Source: a virus | Taxonomy: Duplodnaviria > Caudoviricetes | Direction: 5' to 3' (one strand) | DNA length: 40,432 nucleotides | Virus record (IMG/VR): IMGVR_UViG_3300024420_000006 | Coordinates: 1 to 40,432 of that record | Shown: positions 16,693-40,431 of the stretch, one piece after another | Position numbering within the stretch: position 1 is the stretch's first letter | Layout: every line of letters begins with the position of its first letter | Notes under the pieces: generated by a model | What the model was told of the DNA's origin: nothing | The model's input: only the letters and a program-made list of their open reading frames with translations | Databases searched by the model: none | Position numbers and translations under genes: made by a program

Positions 16693-17811
16693 CTAAAATA
16701 GACTTGTTGTATAAATTAGATTTCTATTAAATCCTTTAAAGCCCATTGCAGTAACAACACGATTAATTGGATCAAGTATTGTTTTTTCAAATTGTCTATC
16801 ATAATCTATCTTAGGTGCAAATTCATAAGGATAATCACCAGGGGCATAAGCAAACACATCACATGATTTATCCATAGAAAAATACATTTTGCATTTTTCA
16901 CCATTACCCAATGGTTGATATTTACCTTTCTTACCTGAGTTATTTAAAAGATAATTATGATAACCAGCAGACCTTACGCCTATTGGGCATTTAGATGCAA
17001 TTTCAAACGCATCATAATCATTCACAATATACTTTTGATAATTATTTACTTTCCTAGAAAAACTAATTTGATCTACATTGGCTAATCTGAATTGCCTTTT
17101 AATATCTTTAAGTAATGCCGCAAACTTACCCATATCTAATTCATTAACAGAAAAGATATACGTTAATAATTCTTTAAGTTTTTCTCTGGCAAAAATAGGA
17201 GTTGACGATTGTATAATTTCAAAACCTTTTGAACTGATTTTTGAAAGATCATCATAGTGAATATTAGGATCTTTCCAAACAATATTTTGCATATACTTTT
17301 TCTTGGCTAACCATATTGCATTTTTAGCAATACTCTCCAACTCAAATGATAAAAAGTTTTCTGCATTGTTATCATCAGCATATTTTTGAAGAATCTTTTC
17401 AATGTAATCATTTAATCTTACCTCATAAAGCTTAAGTATGAATTCTTTTTCATCACCTTGCCACCCTTCACTCTTTTTAATAACCTCATCAAATTTAACA
17501 TAAACTGAATCCGTATCAATATAAATACCTACAGGTTTTTCAATCTTACCTGTAACAGTTATACCCATTTCAGTATGAGCTGGTATATCTCTATGCCAAA
17601 ATTCTTTAAAATATTTGTTAATAAGTTGTTCAGTATATAAAATAGCATCCTTACCTTGGAGTGTAATGGTTTCTGCTATATCAACATTAAAGAAATAAAA
17701 ATAAGGATTACCGAATGCACCATAGATAGAGTTAAGCATTAACTTAACAGCCTGTTCATAATTATAATACTTAGATGCTTCTTCTTTTATGTTCTGTAAT
17801 TCCTCAGTCAT
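16693..17811 (-). CDS. Family B DNA polymerase, C-terminal half (second finger helix, palm, thumb)
   Basis: Motif B KLMLNSIYGAFGN, AETITLQG, motif C YIDTDSVY, KKKY and KGFEIIQSSTP. Confidence 0.93.
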   Translation of the reverse strand: MTEELQNIKEEASKYYNYEQAVKLMLNSIYGAFGNPYFYFFNVDIAETITLQGKDAILYTEQLINKYFKEFWHRDIPAHTEMGITVTGKIEKPVGIYIDTDSVYVKFDEVIKKSEGWQGDEKEFILKLYEVRLNDYIEKILQKYADDNNAENFLSFELESIAKNAIWLAKKKYMQNIVWKDPNIHYDDLSKISSKGFEIIQSSTPIFAREKLKELLTYIFSVNELDMGKFAALLKDIKRQFRLANVDQISFSRKVNNYQKYIVNDYDAFEIASKCPIGVRSAGYHNYLLNNSGKKGKYQPLGNGEKCKMYFSMDKSCDVFAYAPGDYPYEFAPKIDYDRQFEKTILDPINRVVTAMGFKGFNRNLIYTTSLF

Positions 17812-17890: not shown

Positions 17891-18640
17891 TTAATCCTCG
17901 TCAGTAATGGCAACAGCCACAGTAAGATGAGTGTTTGTATCTAATGATCTAAAAACCACTTTATTTTCACATACACTTACCTTGTAATTTTCTTTATCTA
18001 AAAGATTAATATATTTCTTATAAATTACAACCTTTGCTCCTTTTTCAACATTTGAATCATAAGAGTGACAAAGTGTAGCATCATAAGAAGTACCTTTAAT
18101 ATTAATTCCTTTTTCACCAATGTAAAGAGTAAAAATATCCTCATCTTTATCAAGGTTAAATAATGATTTCATTTTATCCACATGAGTAGTAAGTAAATCA
18201 AAATCAAACATTTTAGAATCAACACCAAATGCTCTATCTGTTTCTTCTTTGCTCATTTCCATAAATGATAATGATGGATCTGTACATGCCAAATTAATCT
18301 GAAGATCTTCATTTTCTAAAATAAAATCACTTGCCATTAATTCACCATCATATTCGGTATACTTAATTCTACCTTTTACATCACCATTAAAATGGCTTAA
18401 TGCGTCAATAACTTTAGTACCGTTATAAAAACTAACCTTTACCGGTTCTTTAATATCAGCATCAAAAATATCAGAAGTTGGTGTGTTAACCAATTTTACG
18501 GCATCTCTCTCAGGAAAATACACAGAAGATACCGTACCTTCTTTTGCGATTTTCATAAAGATGAATTTGTCAATTGGAAGTAATTTGCGAACGAATGAAC
18601 TTAATTCATAACCGTCAATTTTGTTAATAGTTGTTTCCAT
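17891..18640 (-). CDS. Probable sliding clamp (T4 gp45-like)
   Basis: 249 aa, acidic, with two-domain beta/alpha periodicity and a clamp-like C-terminus (YKVSVCENKVVFRS...VAVA); adjacent to the polymerase. No diagnostic motif. Confidence 0.55.
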   Translation of the reverse strand: METTINKIDGYELSSFVRKLLPIDKFIFMKIAKEGTVSSVYFPERDAVKLVNTPTSDIFDADIKEPVKVSFYNGTKVIDALSHFNGDVKGRIKYTEYDGELMASDFILENEDLQINLACTDPSLSFMEMSKEETDRAFGVDSKMFDFDLLTTHVDKMKSLFNLDKDEDIFTLYIGEKGINIKGTSYDATLCHSYDSNVEKGAKVVIYKKYINLLDKENYKVSVCENKVVFRSLDTNTHLTVAVAITDED

Positions 18641-18691: not shown

Positions 18692-19708
18692 CTAGAATAC
18701 AGACTTAGTTTTTAATTCTTTCTTTAAAATAAATCCATTTTTCTGTATGCTTTTAAATGAAGGTGGAGACCAATTTTTATCATAAAGAATATTCTTAAGT
18801 TCATATTTAGCTTCATACTTAAAACCATATCTCCATTCTAACCCTGGTAAAAAATCATTTAACCATAAAGGCTTTTTTACACCTATTGCATAATGAATAA
18901 TAGATGGCACAACAACCTTAAGGTATTTGTCAGGTGGAGTACCAGCCTTCATCATCTTATCTCTATTTTGCATTAGCCTTAAGTCTTTACTATCAGTAAA
19001 TTTAACCTTTCTACCTTCGGCTAAATACCTATGAATGTTAAAATGATGGAATCTCTGTTCTACTGTCCAACTTGTATATCCTGTAAAATTGAAATATTGG
19101 TGATGGATGAATGGGTGCTTCATAAATCTTTCAAAGTAATATTCTAATTTAGGATCCTCGCCATATATGATATTACCGGCATTAATAGAAAGGCCATTCA
19201 TTTGCTCTAATGTAAAATCAGTTTCAAAGATTTCATTAAACGCATCCATTACATCATACTTATCTTTATTTCTAATGTAAAATAGATTTTCTTTTTTAAT
19301 ACCGAACTCTTCGTACTCATCCCACATGTAACTTAAGTCATTTAAGATAAATACATCATCATCAGATACTAATGTTCTCTTTACTCCAAATTTTTCTTTT
19401 AGGTATATAGGCATTAAGATTTTAAATAGACATCCATGACTTAATAAAAATTCTTTTGACTTACCTTCATAGCCATGTTTCTTAATATAGTAATCATAAA
19501 GATCATTAAGAATAATAATTTGAGCATTTTTAAATATATCTAAATCGTGCTCTTTAAAAATACCAGCAAGTTTATCTAAATCTATTTTAGTATCATCCAC
19601 AAATAGGTAAATATCAAACTTCTCCTTTATCCCTTTAGGATAATAACTACATAAGATATTTGTAAACTCTAGACTGGATACGCCTATTGCTAAAGCTTTA
19701 TCTTTCAT
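18692..19708 (-). CDS. GT-A fold glycosyltransferase-like protein (GT8-like)
   Basis: DxD motif LVSDDDVFIL, INAG, EQ, and C-terminal IIHY...KP; last gene of the modification operon. Confidence 0.65.
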   Translation of the reverse strand: MKDKALAIGVSSLEFTNILCSYYPKGIKEKFDIYLFVDDTKIDLDKLAGIFKEHDLDIFKNAQIIILNDLYDYYIKKHGYEGKSKEFLLSHGCLFKILMPIYLKEKFGVKRTLVSDDDVFILNDLSYMWDEYEEFGIKKENLFYIRNKDKYDVMDAFNEIFETDFTLEQMNGLSINAGNIIYGEDPKLEYYFERFMKHPFIHHQYFNFTGYTSWTVEQRFHHFNIHRYLAEGRKVKFTDSKDLRLMQNRDKMMKAGTPPDKYLKVVVPSIIHYAIGVKKPLWLNDFLPGLEWRYGFKYEAKYELKNILYDKNWSPPSFKSIQKNGFILKKELKTKSVF

Positions 19709-19710
19709 AA

Positions 19711-20973
19711 TTAAATTATACTTTTTACTTTATACTTCTTTTTTGGTTTAGCACCTAATTCTTCAGATGCTATAACTTTTTGATTTGTGTTATCCTGTTT
19801 TAAGAAAGTGTAATTTGTCATCTTGGCATTTCCTTCACAGAATTTTTTAACTTCATTAGCCATATCCATCGCAGTGGTAACTGGTACATTTTGTGCAATG
19901 TGATTAACTTGGCGAGAAGATTCAATTTTAAAATCTAAAGGTAAACCCATTAAGTGCATCATTTCTCTTACATTTAGATAACGGTTTTCAATTGGGTGAA
20001 CACCATTAAACATATTTCTACCAATAAGAGCAGAAAAAGAATCATGGAAGAAATGTGGAGATGCATCCCAATAACCTAATCCTTGGCTTGTTTTATATTG
20101 TTGATGCTCTAACATATCAATAAAAGTCTTTGTAGATTTTTTATTTGAAAAACCTCTTTTAGGATAATGTTTTTCTAACCATTTAATACAGTCATCAATC
20201 AGATCGTTATTTTCTAAATATTGTGCAATGGTTCCTTTTTTAAATTTTGCAGCAAACTCAGCATGAGTTAATCCTTCTTTTTCTAAAACATATTCATAAG
20301 GCTTAAAGTGATCAGTAACCTTTCCTTCTACCATAAACATATCTTGTTGTGTAGCATCTTCAGGAATTTCTTTTAAATAATCAATAAGATTTTTCTTTTC
20401 TCTAAATTTCCAATTTAACATTGGAACTGTTGGTGTATTCCAAAAGAAGTAAAAGGTTCTCATTCTTCTCTGAGGAATTCCATGAAGTTCAGTATTTGTT
20501 TTAATAAGAGAAAAACTATATCCGTATTTCTGGCCTATTTCTTTTAACCTATCAACAACACCTTCTCCCATTTTAGTAAAAAGACCTGGGGCATTTTCAC
20601 CCCAAAGAACTTTAGGCTTAACATGTTCTAAAATATACTCTGAGGAATTATACATCCATTGATTTTGAGTAGCACCAGATCCTCTTGATGCAGCAGTACC
20701 TTTTGCAGAATTTAATTGTGATAAACCTGCACAAGGGCAAACTGAATTTACATAATCAACTTCATTAAAAGTTTGTTTAGGTATATCTAAATCTTCATGA
20801 TCTAATCTGTACATTGGTACATCCGGCCAATATTTTTCAATATGACTTTCGTTTGCAGCAAATGCATCATAACTTAAATGAAATGCCGGTTCATTACCTG
20901 CAGATTTTTTACATCCTATAGCACTACCACCAATTAGTGGAATTATAGTACCCCATTTTAATTCTTTTCCCAT
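19711..20973 (-). CDS. Atypical C5-cytosine DNA methyltransferase-like enzyme
   Basis: Motif IV CPCAGLS, motif VI GENAPGL, motif VIII HGIPQRRMRTF and motif IX RYLNVREMMHLMGLP are intact. Motif I reads IIPLIGG and motif X reads AQNVP, both non-canonical. Confidence 0.85.
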   Translation of the reverse strand: MGKELKWGTIIPLIGGSAIGCKKSAGNEPAFHLSYDAFAANESHIEKYWPDVPMYRLDHEDLDIPKQTFNEVDYVNSVCPCAGLSQLNSAKGTAASRGSGATQNQWMYNSSEYILEHVKPKVLWGENAPGLFTKMGEGVVDRLKEIGQKYGYSFSLIKTNTELHGIPQRRMRTFYFFWNTPTVPMLNWKFREKKNLIDYLKEIPEDATQQDMFMVEGKVTDHFKPYEYVLEKEGLTHAEFAAKFKKGTIAQYLENNDLIDDCIKWLEKHYPKRGFSNKKSTKTFIDMLEHQQYKTSQGLGYWDASPHFFHDSFSALIGRNMFNGVHPIENRYLNVREMMHLMGLPLDFKIESSRQVNHIAQNVPVTTAMDMANEVKKFCEGNAKMTNYTFLKQDNTNQKVIASEELGAKPKKKYKVKSII

Positions 20974-20974
20974 A

Positions 20975-21997
20975 TTAAATTTTTACTTTTTCAATTTCTA
21001 GATCCTCCATAAATGTTAAAGGATCAATTGTACCTTCACTGATTTCATTTTCAAGATATACTATAGTTTCTTTTATAGTATCTTTAATATCTTTTTTAGG
21101 TTCCCATCCCATTGATTTAGCCTTGGAAATATCTCCACGAATATTTAATGCTTCACCTGCAATCGGATCATAATGATCAAAAGGTATTTCACCAACACCC
21201 ATAATATCACCAATCATATTTTTAAGTTCCATTAAGTTAGTCATTTTACCTGTTCCTAAATTAAATGTTTGGTTTGCAGTATCCTCATTTTCCATACAAA
21301 GAATATGGAATGCATTAACATCAGATACATCAATGTAATCTCTTGCTTTCATATAGTCACCAAATACAATAGGATTATGACCGCCTTTAATTCTTAAGAT
21401 AAATCCTGCAAATACTGGTGGGATGGTTCTATTATAATCTTGTAAAGGCCCAGCTACATTAAAGTATCTTAGTGCAGTATAATTTAATCCTTTAGTTCTT
21501 TGATATGATTCTGCTAATAATGCAAGACATGCTTTAGTAGTAGAGTATACAGTAGTTGGATCTGATTGAGTTTCACTAAAGCCTTCATCTGGCATTTCAC
21601 AGTTTTCATATACGGCAGAAGTTTCACTAAAGATGATTCTTTTTACATCAGCCTTTAAGCACCCATTCATTACATTAATACTTCCTAATATATTATTATC
21701 TACTGCTTCATATGGATCTTCATTACAGTCATAAATAGAAACAAGACCAGCAAAATGATAAACATAATCAGGTTTAAATTCCTCTATAATGTTTTCCACA
21801 TATTGATTTCTAATATCTACTTTATGAAAATTTTCAATTTGGTCATGAACTTTAGGTATATATGTACCATGTTCCATATTATCAATAACAGCAATACATT
21901 TAGGATTATGACCTCTATTTAATAAATCGTTGATAAAATTTGTTCCAACGAACCCAGCTCCACCGGTGACCAGGATTTTTGTTTCAGAATTATACAT
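20975..21997 (-). CDS. NAD-dependent nucleotide-sugar epimerase/dehydratase (GalE-like SDR)
   Basis: TGGAGFVG, YSTTK (YxxxK), LRYFNVAG and RDYIDVSD. Confidence 0.93.
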   Translation of the reverse strand: MYNSETKILVTGGAGFVGTNFINDLLNRGHNPKCIAVIDNMEHGTYIPKVHDQIENFHKVDIRNQYVENIIEEFKPDYVYHFAGLVSIYDCNEDPYEAVDNNILGSINVMNGCLKADVKRIIFSETSAVYENCEMPDEGFSETQSDPTTVYSTTKACLALLAESYQRTKGLNYTALRYFNVAGPLQDYNRTIPPVFAGFILRIKGGHNPIVFGDYMKARDYIDVSDVNAFHILCMENEDTANQTFNLGTGKMTNLMELKNMIGDIMGVGEIPFDHYDPIAGEALNIRGDISKAKSMGWEPKKDIKDTIKETIVYLENEISEGTIDPLTFMEDLEIEKVKI

Positions 21998-23255
21998 TTA
22001 CAGTTTCAGTTTTTGTTACACGTTCATAAGCTTCCCAGATTTTGTTATCTACATGTTCTCCAGTATAATAAGAATCTTTAAGATACTTTTCTTGGAGGTT
22101 ATAGAATAATTTCTTATAATGCTCTGGGTTTGCATTTAAGAATTCAATCTTCTTTTTTAAATCTTCTGGTGATTTACATCTAATAAAGTGACCTTCAGGA
22201 AACACATTAAAGTCAGTATCGTAAGATGGGTGTAAGAAAGGTATTATACCATAATGTAACATTTCTGCATATTTAGAAGTGACCATACCTTCTTTAATAG
22301 GAACGCAGAATGTATATTTGGTACTAAGTAATTCATCGGTCATTGTTTCAATTCTTGTTTCACCTTTAAACCATTTAGGATATTTTTCTTTAATCTCATC
22401 ATCCCATTTTCCGTAAATATCAGTTTCAATATCTTGATCAACGATATACTCTTTTACTGGATCCCATCGGTCCATTCCGCCTGATCCTTTACCTTGATTT
22501 TGTAGCATCATAAATGAATTTGTCTTTTTCATTTCAAACAATTCATCTGTGTTATATCTTTTCTTATCTAAAAGAAATACCGTTTCAATACCAGAATATT
22601 CATAAGTTGATGTTATCTTTGCAGTATCTCGGAGTGGAGGATTGCAAAAATATTCTTCTTCTTTAGTAAATGTATTTTGTGCTAAATAATAAGTAGGTCT
22701 ATTATTAATTCCCCAATCTTTACATGCAAGAATATATCGGTTATCTACAAGTAATCCGACAATAGGAACTTTCTTTTCCAGTTCATTCATTGCTTTAATA
22801 ATTGGAGCTGCATAGTACTTAAAGAAGTCTAATGATTTAACTTGACCAGTACCATCTTTCTTGTTAATATATTCTGGAATATTAACAGTACTAGTCGGCC
22901 CAGTATAAAAGAAAATGTAATCCAAATCTAAACCTTGAATAATTTCAACAGTTTCATCGGTAGACTTTCTCTCTTTCATAGTAGAGTGAAATTCCTTAAT
23001 ATTGTTAGGCACAGTAGGTTCATCCGTTTGCGGTGGACCAAATAAAGAATTTACTTTTGGTTTTTGTTTTGCCCTAAACTTTCCTAAATCATTAGGGCTT
23101 AATAGCCAATATTCAATATTAGGATTTCTGTTTGCAATTGAACAAATTAATTGCTTAGGTTCACAATCTCCACCGATTGCACTCCAACTGTTTTCATTAA
23201 ACTTAATGGCTTTACCTAATTTAAAAAAGCCAATCTTTTTTACATTTTCTTTCAT
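21990..23255 (-). CDS. DNA beta-glycosyltransferase-like protein (T4 BGT family, GT-B)
   Basis: Colinear by-eye matches to T4 BGT: KIGFFKLG/KIAIINMG, LLVDNR/LFTDIR (catalytic Asp), NNRP/KNRP, YEYSGIE/FEYFPIE, VTSKYAEML/ITLRVWETM and YDT/FDT. Confidence 0.75.
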   Translation of the reverse strand: MKENVKKIGFFKLGKAIKFNENSWSAIGGDCEPKQLICSIANRNPNIEYWLLSPNDLGKFRAKQKPKVNSLFGPPQTDEPTVPNNIKEFHSTMKERKSTDETVEIIQGLDLDYIFFYTGPTSTVNIPEYINKKDGTGQVKSLDFFKYYAAPIIKAMNELEKKVPIVGLLVDNRYILACKDWGINNRPTYYLAQNTFTKEEEYFCNPPLRDTAKITSTYEYSGIETVFLLDKKRYNTDELFEMKKTNSFMMLQNQGKGSGGMDRWDPVKEYIVDQDIETDIYGKWDDEIKEKYPKWFKGETRIETMTDELLSTKYTFCVPIKEGMVTSKYAEMLHYGIIPFLHPSYDTDFNVFPEGHFIRCKSPEDLKKKIEFLNANPEHYKKLFYNLQEKYLKDSYYTGEHVDNKIWEAYERVTKTETVNV

Positions 23256-23256
23256 A

Positions 23257-23964
23257 TTAACAATTTTGAATAATGTCTTCTATTACTTGTTTATCTTGTT
23301 CATATGTTAGATCATACCAACATATATTTAATTCTTCAAATTTTAAATTATCCATCGAGTTTATAAGATGAGTAATTTCATATTCATTTCTATTTGATAA
23401 TTTAATACTGCTTAAGTTATCAAATGCTTCTTTTGCAAATATCATATATCCACAGAAGTATCTTCCGTTTACTACGCCATGAGGTTTTTCAATAACTACA
23501 TCCTCTAGGATAGTAGCAAGTTGTAAATTCCTTGCTCTAGTTTCATAATCCTTATAAGTAACTACAGTATTATTTGGATCATGATATTCTAAACCAATAT
23601 TACCTTGATAATAATTATCACCAAAGAGACATAAGAAAGGTTCATAAAATTTACCTTCCCATGCTTTAATTGCAGCACCCGGTCCGTATTCATCATCCTT
23701 TTGGAATTCATAATAAATGTTTATCTTTTCTTTATACTTAGATAAACTTTCAATAATAGGATGAGATAATTTAGTATTTCTTCCTTTAAAAAAGAAGTCA
23801 GATTTGCTTATAGTAACATATACATCTTCTATTCCATTTTCAATACAGAATTCTACACAATACTGAATTGTTGATTTTCCTAAAATTGGATCTATAAGTT
23901 TATTTGATCCATACCTAGTAGACCTTCCGGCTGCTAGAATAATTGCTTTTCTTACTCTGCTCAT
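23257..23964 (-). CDS. Sugar-phosphate nucleotidyltransferase (RmlA-like)
   Basis: AIILAAGRSTR, FGDN, IEKP, SNRNEYEIT and WYD. Confidence 0.9.
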   Translation of the reverse strand: MSRVRKAIILAAGRSTRYGSNKLIDPILGKSTIQYCVEFCIENGIEDVYVTISKSDFFFKGRNTKLSHPIIESLSKYKEKINIYYEFQKDDEYGPGAAIKAWEGKFYEPFLCLFGDNYYQGNIGLEYHDPNNTVVTYKDYETRARNLQLATILEDVVIEKPHGVVNGRYFCGYMIFAKEAFDNLSSIKLSNRNEYEITHLINSMDNLKFEELNICWYDLTYEQDKQVIEDIIQNC

Positions 23965-24707
23965 TTGCTATATTTAATTTCTAATTCGTCAAATAATTCA
24001 TGCCCTTTCTTAAGAAACATACCGGCCAATTCATATCTTTCATTTAACTCAAAGAAAGGTACTGCTCCTAGTAAATGGACTGCTAAAAAGAATTTTAATT
24101 GATATTCATCATACCATTCATACATTATGTTTTCTGCTTCTCTACAGAACTTAAGATATTTAGAATTCCTTTCATTGTATATATGGGCCTCATATTTCAT
24201 TACAAACGATTGCATCAGTTTTCCATAATCATAATAATTCTGTTCTTCAGTACCTCTAGGATCAATAAAAATAAAATCATTATCATATAAGATATTGCTT
24301 ACTGTTAAATCACCATGAACAAAACCCCAACCTGAAGAAGCATCTAAATTACCTTCATAAGTATACCCGGTTCTTCCTTCTAATTTATCTAAATAAGATC
24401 TTGTATCTACATCAGTACCATAACCATCAAAATCATTTACAATATGAATAAGATCGTCTAATTGATCAATTGATTTAATTAAAGGTTGTTCACAGATTTT
24501 ATCATACCATGTAGGGTACTTATCCATTTCAAATGAAGTATCAGATAAAGGTCTTATCTTAATAAAATTAGGGTGAGTACAATTGGCTAACCAATCCATC
24601 TGCTGTTTGAATTTTATTGGATAAACACCAGCTTCTTTAACTACCTTATTATCATGGAGATAAACGCGATCTCCACTATTTCCTACTAAAACTTTACCAG
24701 TATGCAT
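23961..24707 (-). CDS. APH/choline-kinase-fold phosphotransferase (putative sugar kinase)
   Basis: GNSG, HGDLTVSNIL, FIDPRG and YDYGKLMQS. Confidence 0.85.
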   Translation of the reverse strand: MHTGKVLVGNSGDRVYLHDNKVVKEAGVYPIKFKQQMDWLANCTHPNFIKIRPLSDTSFEMDKYPTWYDKICEQPLIKSIDQLDDLIHIVNDFDGYGTDVDTRSYLDKLEGRTGYTYEGNLDASSGWGFVHGDLTVSNILYDNDFIFIDPRGTEEQNYYDYGKLMQSFVMKYEAHIYNERNSKYLKFCREAENIMYEWYDEYQLKFFLAVHLLGAVPFFELNERYELAGMFLKKGHELFDELEIKYSK

Positions 24708-25237
24708 TTCATATTATTTTTAAGTGCGAATGTTGAATCTACTTCTGAATCACCAACCATAAGAAAATCTTTAGGTTCATAATCATCAAAGGTTTCAAAA
24801 ATTAAATCTGCCATATCTGAATGTGGCTTTTTATTAACTACATCATCTCTTGTTACAATCATGTCGAATAAATCGGTACTTATATTATGATAAGACATAA
24901 TTCTATCTACATTTTCTTTAGATGAATTAGATGCAATAATAACCTTTTCAAATTTAGAATTTTCAATAATCCATAAAAGTAATTGATTAACTTTAGTTTT
25001 ATAAAGATTCTTTGAAAAAATTTCTCTTTTATAATTTTGTGCTAAATTTGATTCAACTTTAGTTAATTGATATTTCTTTAAAAGAACATCCATACCATAA
25101 TTAATATCTGCCATTATGGTCTCTAATGGAATTTCTCTTTTTAAGACTCTCTCCAGCGCACGCCTCCAAGAATCTGCATGAGTATCTATTGTAGAAACTA
25201 ATGTATCATCAAAATCTAATATTAAGCACCTCTCCAT
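24686..25237 (-). CDS. HAD-superfamily phosphatase/mutase
   Basis: LDFDDTLV, IASN, KKPHSD and MVGDSEVD. Confidence 0.9.
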   Translation of the reverse strand: MERCLILDFDDTLVSTIDTHADSWRRALERVLKREIPLETIMADINYGMDVLLKKYQLTKVESNLAQNYKREIFSKNLYKTKVNQLLLWIIENSKFEKVIIASNSSKENVDRIMSYHNISTDLFDMIVTRDDVVNKKPHSDMADLIFETFDDYEPKDFLMVGDSEVDSTFALKNNMKCILVKF

Positions 25238-25570: not shown

Positions 25571-26473
25571 TTAGAATTTACCTTTTCTGTTTCGATAGAA
25601 ACTAGTTAATCTAGGTATGTACATATACTTATGACCTTTATCTTTAATTGCTTTCATCATTCTATTAAACATATCAACATCAGCTGCATTTGTTTTAGAT
25701 AAAGGTATTTTAGGTGCAGTGTTTGCTTGTTGTGAAGCATCTCTATATCTTAAATCACCACACATACTTGGCCTCCATGAAACAGCAGAGTGGCTAACAT
25801 CACCATGAGTATAACCTAAATTATTAGGCTCTATTGTTGTGGTATGTCTTTCTTCTCTTGGTTGATACATAAACTTTTTAGAACTGTTTGTTGCATCTAC
25901 CTTTTTACGGCTTCTTGTAAATACATAAGCTAATTCAGGATATTGAGTATATGCCTTTGCTAAAAGTTCTAAATGATCTGGTGTCCACTTATCGTCATGA
26001 TCAATTCTTACAATATAATCACATCCATCGTTCTTTGCCATTTGAAGACCTTTATTCATTGCACCACATCCTGCAGTATATCTAAATTGTTGTTTAGTAA
26101 ACCCTTTATCTCTTTCACCTGGTGTTGATAAGTTATGATACTTAATTTTACCTTTTGGGATTACTTCATCCATGACGGTTTTTATTTCTTCATCACCATC
26201 ATATTTATCACCAACTAAATAAACTACATAATTGTCATATTTCTGATTCTTTATAGATCCTAAAGAATCTCTAAGTAAAGAAGGTGTATCCATAAATTTC
26301 TGTCTACTTGTTTGGGCACCACCATCAGATATTTTATGAGTAGGCATTACAATACCGAACTTAATCTTTTTATCAATTTCACTAGATAGATTTTTTTCTA
26401 GTAAAATTTCAAAGTTCTTAGAACCTATATAAGATTCTAATAAGTTAAAATCATCAAAGGATATCGCTCTCAT
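25571..26473 (-). CDS. Glycosyltransferase family 2
   Basis: GIVMPTH, SIKNQKY, AMNKGL, RIDHDDKW (DxD) and ADVDMF. Confidence 0.88.
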   Translation of the reverse strand: MRAISFDDFNLLESYIGSKNFEILLEKNLSSEIDKKIKFGIVMPTHKISDGGAQTSRQKFMDTPSLLRDSLGSIKNQKYDNYVVYLVGDKYDGDEEIKTVMDEVIPKGKIKYHNLSTPGERDKGFTKQQFRYTAGCGAMNKGLQMAKNDGCDYIVRIDHDDKWTPDHLELLAKAYTQYPELAYVFTRSRKKVDATNSSKKFMYQPREERHTTTIEPNNLGYTHGDVSHSAVSWRPSMCGDLRYRDASQQANTAPKIPLSKTNAADVDMFNRMMKAIKDKGHKYMYIPRLTSFYRNRKGKF

Positions 26474-27585
26474 TTATCAAAAAATGTTTTTATAGACTTT
26501 ATTATTCTTTTTAAATCTTTATCTGTTAAATCAGATCCTGAAGGTAAACATATACCTTGTAAGAATAATAGAGCACTGTTTCCATTTATATATTTCCGAT
26601 ACTGGGTTAAGATTGGCTGTTGGTGCATAGGCTTCCAAATGCGCCTAGCTTCAATATTATCTTTCTCCAAATGTTTAATAAGATCTTCCGGTCTATCTTC
26701 AGCTTTTAATACTGCACAAGTTAACCAGCAATTTGATCTATCACTATCACTTTCACTTTGAAATGAATAAAAGTAATCACCTAATTCTTTTCTATAAGTT
26801 TCATTTATTTTTCTAGTTCTTTTAATTCTATTTTCAATAACTTCCATTTGCCCTATACCTATTGCAGCAAGAACATTACTCATTCTATAGTTATAACCTA
26901 TTTCAGTATGATGATAGAAAGGCATTGAATCTTTTGCTTGTGTTGATAAAAACCTCATCTTATCAGCTTTTTGTTTGTCATCGGTTATTATCACTCCACC
27001 ACCTGAGGTAGATAATAATTTATTTCCGTTAAAAGAATAAATGCCAATATCACCAAAGGTTCCAGTATGTTTATTATTTGTTGTAGAACCAAGACTCTCT
27101 GCTGCGTCTTCAATAATAGGTATGTCATATTCATCTGATAATTTTTTAATTGCTTTCATATTACAAGGTACACCGAAAATATGTACCGGGATAATTGCTT
27201 TAGGTTTTTTACCTATAGCGGTTGAATTAAGTATTGCGGTTTCCAATAAAATAGGATCCATATTCCATGTACCTTCTTCTGAATCTATAAATATAGGTTC
27301 AGCCCCACAATAAATAATAGGATTTACTGTTCCTATAAAAGTTAGAGATGAACATAAAACAAAATCCCCCTCGCTTACGCCTAATGCCCTTAATGCTAAA
27401 TGAATACCTGCAGTTCCTGAAGTAACAGCCACTGCATGCTTTGTACCAGTATATTCTTTTACCATATCCTCAAATTTATTTAAATGAGGTCCTACTGGTG
27501 CGATCCAATTTTGATCAAATACTTCTTTAATGTATTCCAATTCTTTGCCTGACATATGAGGCGGTGATAAGTAAATCTTTTTCAT
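26470..27585 (-). CDS. DegT/DnrJ/PglE-family PLP sugar aminotransferase
   Basis: IYLSPPH, SGTAGIHLAL, EDAAESLG, SFNGNK, GYNYRMSN and CLPSGS. Start moved to the MKKIYL ATG at 27585. Confidence 0.93.
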   Translation of the reverse strand: MKKIYLSPPHMSGKELEYIKEVFDQNWIAPVGPHLNKFEDMVKEYTGTKHAVAVTSGTAGIHLALRALGVSEGDFVLCSSLTFIGTVNPIIYCGAEPIFIDSEEGTWNMDPILLETAILNSTAIGKKPKAIIPVHIFGVPCNMKAIKKLSDEYDIPIIEDAAESLGSTTNNKHTGTFGDIGIYSFNGNKLLSTSGGGVIITDDKQKADKMRFLSTQAKDSMPFYHHTEIGYNYRMSNVLAAIGIGQMEVIENRIKRTRKINETYRKELGDYFYSFQSESDSDRSNCWLTCAVLKAEDRPEDLIKHLEKDNIEARRIWKPMHQQPILTQYRKYINGNSALLFLQGICLPSGSDLTDKDLKRIIKSIKTFFDK

Positions 27586-27586
27586 A

Positions 27587-27970
27587 TTAATTAATTTTGT
27601 CCCATTTATCATCTGAGTCTAATCTAAAAGAACCTATGTAAATTTGATTCCATTCGTCTGGTCCTATCAAAGATAAAAATAAGGTCTCATCATTTTCTCT
27701 CTGATATAAATAATAAGCCTTTCCTTTTATAGGTTTAAATCTAAAATCACTACTATAAACTAATTCATTCCACTCATAAGATTCTAATAGCTTTTTATAT
27801 TCCTCCTTTATCTCATCAAATCTTGCTTTAAAATATTGATTAGTTTTTATAACTTTTTCATTTTTATATGCAGAAATATTTGTAGGTCTAATAGCAGGAG
27901 CTCCTACACTGTCACCATAAGGCATAATAGCTTTATTTTCTGCAAACATATCTGGTTTATCTTTTCCCAT
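27587..27970 (-). CDS. DUF2452-like protein
   Basis: PYGDSVGAPAI, FKPIKGKAYYLY and LSLIGPDEW. Confidence 0.7.
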   Translation of the reverse strand: MGKDKPDMFAENKAIMPYGDSVGAPAIRPTNISAYKNEKVIKTNQYFKARFDEIKEEYKKLLESYEWNELVYSSDFRFKPIKGKAYYLYQRENDETLFLSLIGPDEWNQIYIGSFRLDSDDKWDKIN

Positions 27971-27971
27971 A

Positions 27972-28508
27972 TTATTTTATTTTTGCTGGATTTCCGTATG
28001 CAGTTGAATTATCAGGTATATCTTTTGTTACTACTGAACCTGCACCTATCATACAATTTTTCCCAATTTTTATATAAGGTAGTACTACTGAACCTGCACC
28101 AATAAAACTACCTTCCCCAACTTTAACCCCGCCGCATAAAGTTGCATTAGGTCCTATAAAGGAAAAGTCTCCTAATTGACAATCATGATCAACAGATGCA
28201 GCAGTATTAATAATGCAATGTTTACCTATCTTAGTATCTATTTGAACTACAGCACTTTGTAATATCTGACTCCCTTCACCAATATCATAATTAGATATAA
28301 TTGCAGAATCTGATATAACTGTTACATATTCTATTTCACCTAGTACCTCATCGGCTATTCTCTTTCTGGATTTATTATTGCCTATTGCTATAACCCAAGG
28401 ACCTTGTTGTAAATCAAAATCTTCATCGTTATAAAAACTTATTTGGCTACCACCTAAAACAGAACTAACCACCTTTGCATGACCACCTTTACCGTAAATA
28501 TTAATCAT
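27972..28508 (-). CDS. NeuD/PglD-family sugar acetyltransferase
   Basis: YGKGGHAKVV, IAIGNN, INTAASVDHDC, hexapeptide repeats and GNPAK. Likely start is MINIYG at 28508. Confidence 0.92.
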   Translation of the reverse strand: MINIYGKGGHAKVVSSVLGGSQISFYNDEDFDLQQGPWVIAIGNNKSRKRIADEVLGEIEYVTVISDSAIISNYDIGEGSQILQSAVVQIDTKIGKHCIINTAASVDHDCQLGDFSFIGPNATLCGGVKVGEGSFIGAGSVVLPYIKIGKNCMIGAGSVVTKDIPDNSTAYGNPAKIK

Positions 28509-29556
28509 TACTTTCTCTTTTAAATTCTGGTACAATACTCTTCATTAATAAAAGTATTTTATAAAAATCATTTAATCTGATTTTTGATAATTTTTCTATT
28601 TTAGGAATAATAGTTTTAAAATCATAATCAATATGATTCAGCTTCATAATATTATGATCATCAGTTGGTATCATATTTTCACCATTACATAATAGCTCTT
28701 CATATAATTTTTCACCTGGTCTTAAACCTATGTATTCAATTTTAGCATCACTATTAAAATGCTTAATTAAATTTTTAGCTAAATCAGTAATACTAACAGG
28801 TTCTCCCATATCAAATAAAAATACTTCTCCACCTTTACCTAGTGCACTTGCCTGTAAAACTAATTGACATGCCTCAGGTATAGTCATAAAGTATCTAATT
28901 ACCTCTCTGTGAGTGACACTTACAGGTCCTCCTCTTTCAATTTGTTTTATAAATGTTGGAATTACTGAACCTTCAGATCCTAATACATTACCAAATCTTG
29001 TAATTATAAAATTTGTGGCAGATTTTGTTTCTAAGAATTGTGTATATAATTCTGCAATTCTTTTTGTAGCCCCCATTACATTTGTAGGATTAACTGCTTT
29101 ATCGGTAGAAACCATTATAAATTTTTCTACCTCATTCATATAGGCAATATTAGAAACATTCATAGTTCCTAATACATTAGTTTTTATTGCTTCTATTGGG
29201 TTAGCCTCCATCATAGGTACATGCTTATAAGCAGCAGCATGAAAAACTATATTAGGCTTAAATGAATCAAAAACTTCTTCAAGTCGATACTTATCTCTTA
29301 CATCGCCTATTACATATTTAATATGAGACTTAGGAAATGATCTACTTATTTCTTGCTCCAAATGAAACATTGAAGCTTCGGCATTATCATAAACCGTAAC
29401 AGTACTAGTACCAAAGCTTATTAATTGTCTTACTATTTCACTCCCTATTGAACCGGCACCACCAGTTACTAATACTCTTTTTCCTTTTATGTAATCTTGG
29501 ATTGAATTAAGATCGGTAGATATAGGATCTCTTCCAAGTAATTTATTATAATCCAA
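28501..29556 (-). CDS. UDP-GlcNAc 4,6-dehydratase (PglF/CapD catalytic domain, no membrane anchor)
   Basis: LLGRDP, TGGAGSIGSE, HAAAYKHVP, STDKAVNPTNVMGATK, RFGNVLGS and GLRPGEKLYEEL. Confidence 0.93.
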   Translation of the reverse strand: MDYNKLLGRDPISTDLNSIQDYIKGKRVLVTGGAGSIGSEIVRQLISFGTSTVTVYDNAEASMFHLEQEISRSFPKSHIKYVIGDVRDKYRLEEVFDSFKPNIVFHAAAYKHVPMMEANPIEAIKTNVLGTMNVSNIAYMNEVEKFIMVSTDKAVNPTNVMGATKRIAELYTQFLETKSATNFIITRFGNVLGSEGSVIPTFIKQIERGGPVSVTHREVIRYFMTIPEACQLVLQASALGKGGEVFLFDMGEPVSITDLAKNLIKHFNSDAKIEYIGLRPGEKLYEELLCNGENMIPTDDHNIMKLNHIDYDFKTIIPKIEKLSKIRLNDFYKILLLMKSIVPEFKRESND

Positions 29557-33690: not shown

Positions 33691-35097
33691 TTAAGACTTT
33701 TTAAGTTCTTGTTCTAAATCATATGCTTTTTGCTGTAAACGGAAAGATTCTTTCTTATATTCTTTTCTTTGTGAATATAACCTAGTAAGAACATCCTTTA
33801 AGATTGATCTTTCAGTATCATATACTGCACCAGTTACCGATACAATATTATTGTCACCTCTTTCTTCTTCTCTTTTTTCTGGTGATACCTTTTTCTTAAA
33901 ACTTTCTGGTGAAACGTTCATCTGTCTCATAATAGAAGGATATAGAGAAGCAAAGTCAAATGCAGCAACCGCATTATGCATACCTGTGATAGGTTCTTTT
34001 ACAAAAGCACCTTCAAATTGTTCTCTTTTTGCAGGAGGTGCTTTAGGGTCTTTTGCCATTACAAGGTTTCTTGTTAAAAACTCTCTTGCCAATAACGCCT
34101 CAGTAATTGCAACAGGTGAAGCAGCTTTGAAAATACTAATCTGAGTCATATGAGCAATAGTTAATGCAATATCCATCGTCTTAATCTTTTGATGAATAAG
34201 ATAAACTAATGCAGTATCAATTACATTATAGAAAACATATTTAGGATAATCCTTTTCATACATGTCTTGGATAGTACCTTCATATTTAACCTTCTTAATT
34301 CCTACAACAGCTTCACCTACAGTATCTAATTTAAAATCTTCTTTAATATCAACAGTCCTATCCCATTTAGCATAAATATCTAAATAATCCATAACACCAA
34401 CATGGCATGGAAATTCATCTCTACCAAAATTTCTACCTATTGGTGAAGCTGACCCAATATCAATCCCTAATTTTTTACATCGGTTAATAATGTACTGCCA
34501 ATCAAATTTAACATAGTTCCAACCTGTCATCATTGGAAATTTTTGGACAAAGGACATCATAAAGGTTGACATCATATCATATTCAGATTTAAAACATTTA
34601 AAAGTAAATGTAAAATCATCATCTATATTTTTAAAATGTTCATCTATTTGTTTCTGAATCTTTGTTTGTGTTTGATTATCTAAGTCTTTAGTTGCTAAAA
34701 CTATACATTGTTTTTCTGGTGTAACAATACATATCGTAGTAACCGGGTTAGGTGCCTTACTTGGTTCAGGAAATGAATCGGTTACCTCAACCTCAATATC
34801 AACAAAATAAGTTCTTGGAAAATGATAACCGAAAATTAATTTTCTATCAGAAGGTGATATTTGATCCATATATTCAATAATTCTATACTTATTTAAAAAT
34901 CTTGACCTTGCCTTCTTAACTGACCGGCCATCCCAATTTTTTATTTTTGAATCTGCGTTAGGATCATCACTATCACATACTTCCCAATTAAACATATCTT
35001 CTGGTTTAAGATCATAAGTCTTAAATCTAGTTTTTCCATCAAGGTTAAAATAAGATACCCATAATTGACGATCTTCTTGTGTAATATCTAAAAGCAT
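33691..35097 (-). CDS. Family B DNA polymerase, N-terminal half (3'-5' exonuclease, motif A, first finger helix)
   Basis: ExoI VDIEV, ExoII GWNYVKFD, ExoIII YNVIDT and motif A DFASLYPSIM; ends after LYSQRKEYKK. Confidence 0.93.
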   Translation of the reverse strand: MLLDITQEDRQLWVSYFNLDGKTRFKTYDLKPEDMFNWEVCDSDDPNADSKIKNWDGRSVKKARSRFLNKYRIIEYMDQISPSDRKLIFGYHFPRTYFVDIEVEVTDSFPEPSKAPNPVTTICIVTPEKQCIVLATKDLDNQTQTKIQKQIDEHFKNIDDDFTFTFKCFKSEYDMMSTFMMSFVQKFPMMTGWNYVKFDWQYIINRCKKLGIDIGSASPIGRNFGRDEFPCHVGVMDYLDIYAKWDRTVDIKEDFKLDTVGEAVVGIKKVKYEGTIQDMYEKDYPKYVFYNVIDTALVYLIHQKIKTMDIALTIAHMTQISIFKAASPVAITEALLAREFLTRNLVMAKDPKAPPAKREQFEGAFVKEPITGMHNAVAAFDFASLYPSIMRQMNVSPESFKKKVSPEKREEERGDNNIVSVTGAVYDTERSILKDVLTRLYSQRKEYKKESFRLQQKAYDLEQELKKS

Positions 35098-35105
35098 ATT
35101 TATTT

Positions 35106-35133
35106 TTTATAAGTAAAAATTAATAATTGTTTT
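35106..35133 (-). promoter_or_regulatory. Putative middle promoter AAAAC-N17-TATAAA (polymerase N-half)
   Basis: Recurrent bipartite motif. Confidence 0.6.
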
Positions 35134-35614
35134 CTTGTCTGTTCCAATTCTCTTCATTTTTAGAGAGATAGTAATTATAGAACTCTTGTGGTGTTACACC
35201 TATGGCCAAACCTGCATTAAATACAAAGTGCATAACATCGATCCATTCCATTTTTAATTCTTTTAAATCTCCTGGAGTTAAATCTGATAATTTTTGTTTT
35301 CTTATTTCAGGGTTTGCAGATTTCCAAGGTTTCCATGCAGCATTACCTTCACCATCTTCAATACCACCTACAGCATCCATCATTTCATGTAATTCATCAA
35401 TAATTGCATGATTGGTTACCATAAGAAAATCTACAACATCACCTATGGTAAATTCGGAAAAAGGTTTTCTACCTTGTTTCTCAAAATACATAGATTGTGT
35501 TTTTGCTTGGAGTGAATAAAGATCTTCTAATGAATTTTTAGAATGATCATAACCGTTCTCTGAAAAGTAATCTCTTACCTCGAGATCTTTACATTTATTA
35601 TCAATGTTAGCCAT
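35120..35614 (-). CDS. All-alpha dimeric dCTPase/dUTPase (T4 gp56-like)
   Basis: DELHE, WKPWK, MEWIDVMHF and KNEENWNRQ. Confidence 0.85.
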   Translation of the reverse strand: MANIDNKCKDLEVRDYFSENGYDHSKNSLEDLYSLQAKTQSMYFEKQGRKPFSEFTIGDVVDFLMVTNHAIIDELHEMMDAVGGIEDGEGNAAWKPWKSANPEIRKQKLSDLTPGDLKELKMEWIDVMHFVFNAGLAIGVTPQEFYNYYLSKNEENWNRQENNY

Positions 35615-35631
35615 AAAATATTTGATTTATT

Positions 35632-35660
35632 TTTATATAGCTAATCTATACATTTGTTTA
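35632..35660 (-). promoter_or_regulatory. Putative middle promoter TAAAC-N18-TATAAA (dCTPase/dUTPase)
   Basis: Recurrent bipartite motif. Confidence 0.7.
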
Positions 35661-36494
35661 CATGTAAGCAGAAGGATTTGGGAGACCGCTGTAATGATCC
35701 CATAAAGCATCTTCATCCCATTTAGAATCATACCAAAACATTCTTCCATTTTTGTCCTTTCGCTTTGACATATTAGGATTACCGTAGCACCTCATAAATT
35801 TTCTAAGAGGTTCTGGGTCTGTACTAAATGGGCTTTCCCAATCTTTTAATTGACCACCTCCTAAAGCATATGCCTGTAATGGAATATCTCTACATAATAC
35901 AAAAATATCAGGTTCTCTTCTAAGAATATCTCTAGCAGACGCAAAAGGATTAATATGTGGAAGACGATAAAGTATTTCTGCCCTAAGATAATTTCCTATA
36001 CCGTTAAAGTAAGACTGGTTCATCAGTACTGTGTGTATAGGGTGATTGAATGCAGCTTTATCTAAGTTATGAATAATATTATCAGTAAAGGCATCATATT
36101 CAGTTGTAGGATCTGGTCCTCTGTTAGGTGACCAATCATCTACCCATTTCCACTTACCGAATCTACGGACATCTACAAATGATAATGTAGTACCATCCTT
36201 TTCAGCAAACATAAGATGAGAATGTTTTTTCTCACCTCCTGTATTTGTATGAGCAAAATGACCGCTCATTCCCATGGTCATTAGAAGATGCCGCTTTTCA
36301 CTAGAATCATTATCGGAAAGCGTAAGCATAAGTTCCTTTCCTCTACTCTCTGCTGAGATTCTAAAGAACTTAAAAGGTACTTCAATATCTTTACCTTTAT
36401 GAACCGGGTTCTTTTTAATGTTTACAAATTTTAATCCGTTTGCCGATTTATTAACATAGTCGGCGGTTAGTCTAAGTTCAGCTAATTCTGGCAT
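35658..36494 (-). CDS. Fpg/Nei DNA glycosylase/AP lyase of NEIL1 (zincless finger) type
   Basis: N-terminal PE, RGKEL, GMSG, FVDVRRFG and H2TH FNGIGNYLRAEILYR; no Cys4 zinc finger. Confidence 0.92.
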   Translation of the reverse strand: MPELAELRLTADYVNKSANGLKFVNIKKNPVHKGKDIEVPFKFFRISAESRGKELMLTLSDNDSSEKRHLLMTMGMSGHFAHTNTGGEKKHSHLMFAEKDGTTLSFVDVRRFGKWKWVDDWSPNRGPDPTTEYDAFTDNIIHNLDKAAFNHPIHTVLMNQSYFNGIGNYLRAEILYRLPHINPFASARDILRREPDIFVLCRDIPLQAYALGGGQLKDWESPFSTDPEPLRKFMRCYGNPNMSKRKDKNGRMFWYDSKWDEDALWDHYSGLPNPSAYM

Positions 36495-39543: not shown

Positions 39544-40431
39544 TTAAGTATCCCAGGCCATGCCATAAGTAACGAATGCATATCCTATACCAACGGAATT
39601 TGTAATTTCTAAAGTCAATACTACATAAATATCACAATCACCGTCCCATTTAGTAGGCTGCACAAAAAGATTACCACAATAGCCCATAACTCTTTCTGAT
39701 GAACTTATAGTAAATGATGCTGTGGCATCAATACTACATGGTGCCTGTGTACCATCACCTGTATAACATTGATATGCAGTTGCAGTTATTCTACCTTGAA
39801 AAGAAGATTCAACTCCTTTTTGAACCTCAGTACCTATTGATATACATATATCAATTCCATCTTTAGGGTTAGGATCACCATCAATTACAATTTTATGACC
39901 GAATGATGCTAAATCCCATGCTGAAAGATTTCTACCTGCTGCCTGGACAGTATCTGGTGTCCAAATCTGAGAAGCCCATCCACCAGCATTAGATTGACCA
40001 ACTTGTCTACCACCGTTAAAGAAGTCATTTCTCGCCGGGCCTTCTAATGTAAATTGATTTGCTAAGAGACCTCTTCTAGAAGTGCTACCACCATCAGTAC
40101 CTGAAGTTCCTTGCGTTCCTGTAGTTCCTTGTGGTCCTTGTGTACCTGTTCCTGTAGTTCCTTGTGGTCCTTGAACAGTTGATGCATTACCTTTTTGACC
40201 TTGTGGTCCTTGTGGACCTTGAACGGTTGATGCATTACCGGTGGTTCCTTGTGGTCCTTGAACGGTTGATGCATTACCAGTAGTTCCTTGTGGTCCTTGA
40301 ACAGTTGATGCATTACCAGTGGTTCCTTGTGGACCTTGTACCGTTGATGCATTACCAGTGGTTCCTTGTGGTCCTTGAACAGTTGATGCATTACCAGTGG
40401 TTCCTTGTGGACCTTGTACCGTTGATGCATT
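39544..40431 (-). CDS. Collagen-like fibre protein, C-terminal part (5' end outside the window)
   Basis: Not in the ORF track. The frame is open from the window end: (NASTVQGPQGTTG)n, then a Cys-containing beta-rich domain ending GYAFVTYGMAWDT-stop. Confidence 0.85.
   Translation of the reverse strand, partial: NASTVQGPQGTTGNASTVQGPQGTTGNASTVQGPQGTTGNASTVQGPQGTTGNASTVQGPQGTTGNASTVQGPQGPQGQKGNASTVQGPQGTTGTGTQGPQGTTGTQGTSGTDGGSTSRRGLLANQFTLEGPARNDFFNGGRQVGQSNAGGWASQIWTPDTVQAAGRNLSAWDLASFGHKIVIDGDPNPKDGIDICISIGTEVQKGVESSFQGRITATAYQCYTGDGTQAPCSIDATASFTISSSERVMGYCGNLFVQPTKWDGDCDIYVVLTLEITNSVGIGYAFVTYGMAWDT

Follow-up and report, generated by a model that had tools for sequence, protein, structure and literature searches.

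The DNA analysed, referred to here as the window, is the whole of a 40,432-nucleotide viral record and represents a fragment of a T4-like phage. A run of genes leads from a HAD phosphatase through a kinase, a nucleotidyltransferase, a candidate GT-B glycosyltransferase and an epimerase to the enzyme considered here, and continues with a 338-aa ORF, a sliding clamp and a polymerase. The features are as follows.

16693..17811, minus strand: family B DNA polymerase, C-terminal part, ending in YTTSLF
17891..18640, minus strand: sliding clamp (PCNA fold), identified by fold
18692..19708, minus strand: 338-aa ORF ending in KSVF, present in part of the relatives, no Pfam or PHROG match
19711..20973, minus strand: PLIGG/QNVP-type C5-cytosine methyltransferase-fold enzyme, intact ORF of 420 aa
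20975..21997, minus strand: NAD-dependent nucleotide-sugar epimerase/dehydratase
21990..23255, minus strand: candidate GT-B glycosyltransferase, weak Pfam match (PF13524, E 0.001)
23257..23964, minus strand: nucleotidyltransferase, by Pfam
23961..24707, minus strand: APH-like kinase, weak match (E 0.009)
24686..25237, minus strand: HAD phosphatase
35120..35614, minus strand: T4 gp56-type dCTPase/dUTPase homolog, 32-43% identical to T-even dCTPases

The preference of the gp56-type dCTPase homolog for dCTP over dUTP is putative. A homolog of the GT-B candidate adjoins the same enzyme in Pseudoalteromonas phage XG4. This neighbour had been called BGT-like in a preliminary description of the sequence; its glycosyltransferase Pfam matches are weak, no match to T4 BGT was obtained by sequence profile, and the sequence did not confirm the name. 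The family B polymerase is divided between two minus-strand ORFs, 33691-35097 and 16693-17811, which are separated by some 16 kb that contain the modification cluster. An Fpg/Nei glycosylase with a Neil1-type C-terminal match (35658-36494, minus strand) stands beside the dCTPase homolog, and an amino-sugar pathway (26470-29556, minus strand), consisting of a DegT aminotransferase, a PglD-like acetyltransferase and a Polysacc_synt_2 dehydratase, adjoins a GT2 gene (25571-26473). A repetitive ORF at the window end (40062-40430, minus strand) probably arises from a collagen-like repeat read out of frame.

The product of 19711..20973 matched PF00145 with an E-value of 8e-22 (78.5 bits against a cut-off of 22), and its look-alikes in the atlas were PF00145 viral clusters only. 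A structure prediction, as proposed in the preliminary description, returned the C5-MTase fold: the AlphaFold2 model, for which 76 sequences were supplied, had a pLDDT of 90.9, and C5-MTases came top in the VIA fold comparison (Z 24.4, rmsd 2.9, 279 residues aligned, with many rows tied). As modelled, the ORF is a well-folded C5-MTase homolog. With the bacterial enzymes M.HhaI and M.HaeIII of PF00145 it has in common the fold, at VIA Z 22-24, and the catalytic motifs IV, VI, VIII and IX, whereas motifs I, II and X have been rebuilt. The class features present are the fold and the catalytic PC, EN and QxRxR, and those missing are the motif I FxGxG, the acidic residue of motif II and the Gly-Asn of motif X, where A360-Q361 is found. 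The motifs map to the window as follows.

20926..20943, minus strand: rebuilt motif I, IPLIGG (residues 11-16), with Leu at the first Gly of FxGxG, by alignment
20869..20874, minus strand: motif II, Ser34 for the ribose-binding Glu, aromatic Tyr35 kept, by alignment with CmoX E47/F48
20731..20736, minus strand: motif IV Pro-Cys (residues 80-81), catalytic C81, by motif and conservation
20593..20598, minus strand: motif VI Glu-Asn (residues 126-127), E126, by motif and conservation
20458..20472, minus strand: motif VIII QRRMR (residues 168-172), R170/R172, by motif and conservation
19882..19893, minus strand: rebuilt motif X QNVP (residues 361-364), Q361 at the HhaI N304 / CmoX R350 position, by alignment

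Motif IX reads REMMHLMG (residues 336-343). The motifs were mapped on a reference alignment with six canonical phage enzymes, one of them CmoX from Synechococcus phage S-B43, the CmoX contacts being taken from the available part of PMC12783734. In this alignment CmoX F25 corresponds to I11, the first motif I glycine to L13, E47 to S34, F48 to Y35 and R350 to Q361. CmoX D69, the motif III Asp, aligns to the variable R56, and the conserved Asp lies two residues on (D58, 83%). The alignment with the six canonical enzymes confirmed that motif I has become IPLIGG and that the motif II acid is missing, both of which had been remarked on earlier. QNVP was likewise present, but its register required correction: G-N-(S/A)-V-P pairs with A-Q-N-V-P, so that the conserved Asn is replaced by Q361 and N362 occupies the next position.

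Among 120 homologs, motif I is IPLIGG in 87 and IPLVGG in 6, with gaps in 15, and QNVP is found in 110. Conservation was also evaluated over 151 more diverse rows, made up of 146 best representatives and 5 added sequences. All of the catalytic motifs that the preliminary description had listed as retained (PC, EN, QxRxR and motif IX) were located, with C81 and E126 conserved at 100% and R170 and R172 at 99%. The residues of the rebuilt pocket are held almost as firmly (P12 96%, L13 96%, S34 86%, N41 93%, Q361 97% and N362 93%; with F38 the range is 86-97%). Since the changes at the SAM site are conserved family-wide, they are old and selected and do not represent private drift. We infer that SAM binding has been lost. 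Judged from its sequence, the enzyme would activate the base as a C5-MTase does but fails on the SAM-motif features, and it appears to be neither a CmoX nor an MT/TET partner. With an intact catalytic core and a SAM site rebuilt across the family, the non-methyl chemistry suggested earlier is plausible.

The PLIGG family comprises 2121 proteins at E ≤ 0.001 and 457 clusters at E ≤ 1e-30, and about 1500 stored stretches of IMG/VR carry a member. The cultured carriers are cyanophage S-TIM5 and three relatives, phage XG4 and, with the more remote member gp301, Bacillus phage G, so the function is directly testable. Unlike M.HhaI and M.HaeIII, the family occurs in phages with a hydroxymethylcytosine (hmC) pathway and in copepods, and not in cellular prokaryote genomes: a GTDB scan gave two matches, both phage-like contigs, one identical to a viral record and the other a short contig with an S-TIM5-type gene. 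The GTDB entry JBBACR010000001.1 (L287), binned as a MAG of Pacearchaeota, is in fact a phage contig of 425 kb. The family was not met in the available parts of PMC8256090, PMC10452541, PMC12801897, PMC12697855 and bioRxiv 2023.12.21.572611, although the C5-MT alignments of PMC8256090 could include members, and a literature search on phage G gp301 returned nothing. Family members are annotated as ordinary methylases, yet the phages in which they reside are predicted to contain little unmodified cytosine.

That prediction comes from the genes that accompany the enzyme. Thymidylate synthase homologs in family genomes were classed by the residue signatures given in the accessible text of PMC13326640, where N177D denotes a dCMP substrate, L143D/E hydroxymethyl and D169N hydroxy. 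When 40 family records were searched, 24 held an N177D synthase, one held a canonical synthase only and 15 held none; the latter are fragments of 39-70 kb, and all 17 records of at least 76.9 kb have the N177D form. Further family records gave 4/4 and 5/5. The enzymes were also clustered at 65% identity into 31 clusters, two of which are second paralogs in the same genomes. An N177D synthase accompanied 26 of the 31 in their locus or contig, with D143 as well in 25, and the other five are fragments of 7-52 kb. All five complete or near-complete genomes carry it together with a separate ThyX or canonical ThyA, which indicates that the N177D enzyme is extra. None of six control large phages with canonical C5-MTases, a small, hand-picked set, had it.

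The dCMP-hydroxymethylase-type gene is not in the 40 kb window. However, the full signature (D143, D169, D177) was found in relatives whose enzymes are 84-93% identical, among them G029, G031 and G036 at 91-93%. The synthase in these relatives and the dCTPase in the window together indicate that the acceptor for the glycosyltransferase is most likely 5hmC drawn from the nucleotide pool, and we infer that the DNA of the window phage contains 5hmC. This runs counter to the earlier proposal that the enzyme itself makes the acceptor. Nor is the glycosyltransferase, whose co-occurrence had been put forward as a check, the constant partner of the enzyme: that partner is the N177D synthase, and the sugar genes near the enzyme vary between the alpha-glucosyltransferase family phrog_2888, the GT-B candidate of the window and other presumed transferase families. 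No glycosyltransferase lies near the enzyme gene in the S-TIM5 clade. The phrog_173 dCTPase was absent from S-TIM5 and from the complete genome G005, both of which may therefore have unmodified C to offer.

The N177D synthase, dNMP kinase, dCTPase, HAD, kinase, nucleotidyltransferase and GT-B genes are shared with the T-even glucosyl-5hmC and the RB69/DLP3 arabinosyl-5hoC pathways. Those pathways differ in that the available part of PMC13326640 lists no C5-MTase-fold gene for them. The family synthase has D169 and not Asn, which points to a hydroxymethyl and not a hydroxy product. Phage C5-MT/TET/GT clusters, as described in the accessible sections of PMC8256090 and bioRxiv 2023.12.21.572611, resemble the present locus in that a C5-MTase-fold gene adjoins glycosyltransferase genes. 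In contrast to these clusters, TET was found in 0/4 and 0/5 family records with PF12851, an insensitive model by which distant TETs could be missed, and 5hmC is predicted to come from dCMP hydroxymethylase. Phage G (L042, L146; 219-234 kb) encodes a D143/D177 synthase, an alpha-glucosyltransferase, a nucleotidyltransferase, a HAD protein and a divergent family member (FIFGG, QGVP), and its DNA is predicted to contain glycosyl-5hmC.

The carboxyl end of the enzyme offers an indication of where it acts.

19711..19743, minus strand: C-terminal tail KKKYKVKSII, similar to the tail of the polymerase; by sequence pattern only, a candidate peptide for clamp binding

The enzyme tails track the polymerase tail by lineage: TLENFF accompanies a polymerase ending in TLESFFA in L242, and KSII or xSLF accompanies YTTSLF in the group of the window. 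An ending with a hydrophobic pair was found in 59 of 128 distinct enzymes and in 208 of 1940 other ORFs. A complex prediction of the clamp trimer with a 35-residue tail scored 0.13 (mark 0.32). The tails suggest that the enzyme may bind the clamp and act on new phage DNA at the fork.

The kept catalytic residues, the rebuilt donor pocket and the company of hydroxymethylcytosine genes together suggest an enzyme that edits 5hmC and does not add a methyl group. We give action on 5hmC in some form about an even chance. In the specific mechanism that we place first, though only tentatively, the enzyme would act on 5hmC in new phage DNA independently of SAM, most likely by dehydroxymethylation. The dCMP-hydroxymethylase-type enzyme, dNMP kinase and gp56-type dCTPase, whose genes are present in the relatives or the window, would fill new DNA with 5hmC, a product predicted from the signature residues. 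Through its tail, which is similar to theirs, the enzyme would travel on the sliding clamp as the polymerase and the glycosyltransferases would. C81 would add to C6, with E126, R170 and R172 holding the flipped base, a chemistry assigned by homology to residues that are present. With SAM presumably shut out of its site, the adduct would break down by expelling formaldehyde, and this would happen in certain sequence contexts. The outcome would be a patterned genome with sugar-5hmC at some contexts and plain C at others. For an enzyme whose catalytic residues are intact and whose SAM site is blocked, and which is tethered at the fork to a substrate filled with 5hmC, dehydroxymethylation would be the simplest reaction.

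Dehydroxymethylation by C5-MTases without SAM has been described (available part of PMC11347137). As cited there, DNMT3A/3B and bacterial C5-MTases carry out the same proposed chemistry, but in their case SAM enzymes do so on the side and in vitro, whereas in the PLIGG enzyme it would be a dedicated function. If true, this would be a natural case of direct demethylation, a process that has so far figured in discussion only as a side activity in vitro, and a 5hmC dehydroxymethylase could serve as a 5hmC-sequencing tool. Any non-methyl outcome would be new DNA chemistry. Against erasure, any selective gain from the removal of a protective mark would be conjectural.

The possibility was considered that the enzyme is a SAM-dependent methyltransferase with an unusual pocket, which methylates unmodified cytosines left over at the fork by incomplete hydroxymethylation and, in S-TIM5, writes the RC pattern. 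This is a serious competitor, although it too falls well short of being probable. The full catalytic set and fold are present, Y35 and the nearby D58 are kept, and some genomes have no dCTPase. However, the Gly to Leu and Phe to Ile changes of motif I and the Glu to Ser change of motif II are fixed across the family, phages that have both hydroxymethylase and dCTPase should retain little plain C, and the model does not require the tight link between the N177D enzyme and the family.

The S-TIM5 homolog, with IIPLVGG and QNVP, is the sole PF00145 gene of its genome. Sabehi and co-workers reportedly described S-TIM5 DNA in 2012 as methylated at all cytosines that follow purines (RC), a term that may cover 5mC or 5hmC. 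This reported pattern is most simply accounted for by an enzyme that methylates RC, which speaks against an eraser. The S-TIM5 ThyA (L040:4763-5599) is N177D with C143/H147 and coexists with ThyX; it is a candidate dCMP methylase or hydroxymethylase, and C143/H147 would fit the methylase better. In the simple reading, the enzyme would methylate RC and the N177D enzyme would feed dTMP through a deaminase, as the available part of bioRxiv 2024.12.05.627091 proposes for other phages. In the other reading, 5hmC would be placed everywhere and erased at YC. C143 and the missing dCTPase favour RC methylation.

A footprint of methylation was sought in the ratio of observed to expected G or C at synonymous sites by next base. 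S-B43, in which 75% of GC sites are modified (PMC12783734, accessible part), had a GC ratio of 0.37, and phage Melnitz had 0.44. The family carriers gave 1.00 (window), 1.49, 0.84, 1.43 (XG4), 1.56 (phage G), 1.43 (S-TIM5) and 1.02 (G024), and the AC ratio of S-TIM5 was 1.30, like that of several controls. These ratios speak against dense methylation of a dinucleotide (GC, AC or CG) but not against sparse methylation, and a sparse clean-up methylase would equally leave none. Damage by UV light at YC can also influence such ratios. That S-TIM5 has lost neither GC nor AC counts against SAM-dependent methylation there and moves the balance a little toward erasing.

CpG methylation of the window was also considered, since raw dinucleotide and k-mer counts gave a CpG value of 0.42. 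No gain of CpA accompanied it, and the candidate was rejected; the codon-controlled test agrees (CG 0.72, CA 0.88), the pattern being found in control Fnu1 as well. In the XG4 genome (L158-L165), GATC is strongly avoided (376 against 1163 expected), as is CGACG (0 against 33); such avoidance despite a predicted hmC pathway would fit incomplete protection. Methylophilales phage Melnitz (L296) carries a canonical C5-MTase beside its polymerase that is a sister of CmoX in the tree, and its strong GC depletion makes this enzyme a likely GC-specific modifier.

A different use of the same adduct is group exchange on 5hmC, which we regard as possible but rather doubtful. Loss of water would leave a 5-methylene that takes a thiol, an amine, a sugar hydroxyl or a hydride, or formaldehyde would be lost and methylation follow, and the product would be a second hypermodified base. 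Thiols add to 5hmC. The synthase linkage and the tail evidence apply here as they do to erasure, the invariant new pocket residues F38, N41, Q361 and N362 suggest a bound co-substrate, and the benefit of an added group is more readily explained than that of an erased one. A precedent exists in M.MpeI, which transfers methyl to 5hmC at a low level (PMC11347137, available part). Against group exchange, no constant co-substrate gene stands alongside the family, and the unmodified YC in S-TIM5 would go unexplained if the reported pattern came from bisulfite.

The original proposal of the preliminary description, that hydroxymethyl from formaldehyde or another C1 carrier is put on DNA cytosine to make or top up the glycosyltransferase acceptor, is unlikely. 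It is the reverse of the same chemistry, and it would fit both RC-only protection without GC loss in S-TIM5 and the genomes lacking dCTPase. However, a nucleotide-level hydroxymethylase already exists in 25 of the 31 clusters, and in the S-TIM5 clade the gene lacks a nearby glycosyltransferase. The C5-MTase fold is not known to have a folate site, and free formaldehyde in cells is low. Less likely again is a helper without turnover, which flips or covalently holds 5hmC for the glycosyltransferase. A glycosyltransferase-like gene with a similar tail is adjacent in most loci, but the enzyme pairs with unrelated transferase families or with none and persists in animals without the pathway.

Carboxymethylation with carboxy-SAM, the other donor suggested earlier, is very improbable. 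CmoX provides the precedent: it is a C5-MTase homolog of a phage that gained a new role by a change at the Asn position of motif X, and its structure (PDB 8YF3; PMC12783734, available part) ranks with the best fold matches (Z 23.7, rmsd 3.8, 291 aligned, tied with ordinary methylases). But CmoX has Arg there, an SPPC motif, FxGxG, E47, a SAM-type pocket and the partners CmoA and CmoY, whereas the enzyme has VCPC and Q361, is 17% identical and belongs to a family that excludes CmoX in the tree. CmoA was found in none of 10 family records, of which 5 are incomplete, with S-B43 positive as control.

The family extends to animals. EukProt contains transcripts of the copepod Neocalanus flemingeri that share 53-55% identity with the phage enzyme and form two paralog clusters, P0038 and P0083; related unnamed proteins carry C2H2 or CXXC domains. 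In a quick tree, 16 rows labelled eukaryote-like, two of them named and the rest so labelled by similarity and long tails, nest inside the phage clade of the window with a support of 95. The nesting points to transfer of a DNA-modifying enzyme from phage to animal as the likely origin of the copepod copies, on which no literature was found. In the animal-type protein P0300 (47 members), a divergent member of the family is joined to a TET2-like domain (E 7e-12) that has the HxD motif, is cut short at its C-terminus and ends before the last strands; P0300 is a single 90% cluster on a long branch. In P0300 and P0329 this domain lies at residues ~640-830, and a C2H2 finger is present at the N-terminus. 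A search for further TET fusions returned the query only, and among longer forms of the family (1193-3405 aa searched) two were found, both without TET.

The TET fusion ties the family to the biology of 5hmC without telling in which direction the enzyme works. In the most far-reaching form of the erasure hypothesis, which is conjectural and which we hold less firmly than dehydroxymethylation in the phage, the enzyme would be a dedicated natural eraser of DNA 5hmC that gave up SAM to strip hydroxymethyl at the replication fork and was later passed into copepods, where the CXXC and zinc-finger paralogs and the TET fusion would allow 5mC to be converted to 5hmC and then to C without base excision. 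The copepod CXXC copies and the TET fusion would fit a methyl writer equally well, by analogy with phage C5-MT/TET pairs, and to that extent they count for SAM-dependent methylation. Paralogs are also found among the phages: tandem copies of the enzyme, 37-47% identical to one another, lie at L109:6843-9253, L114:9974-12410 and L115:9962-12378, which suggests two target contexts.
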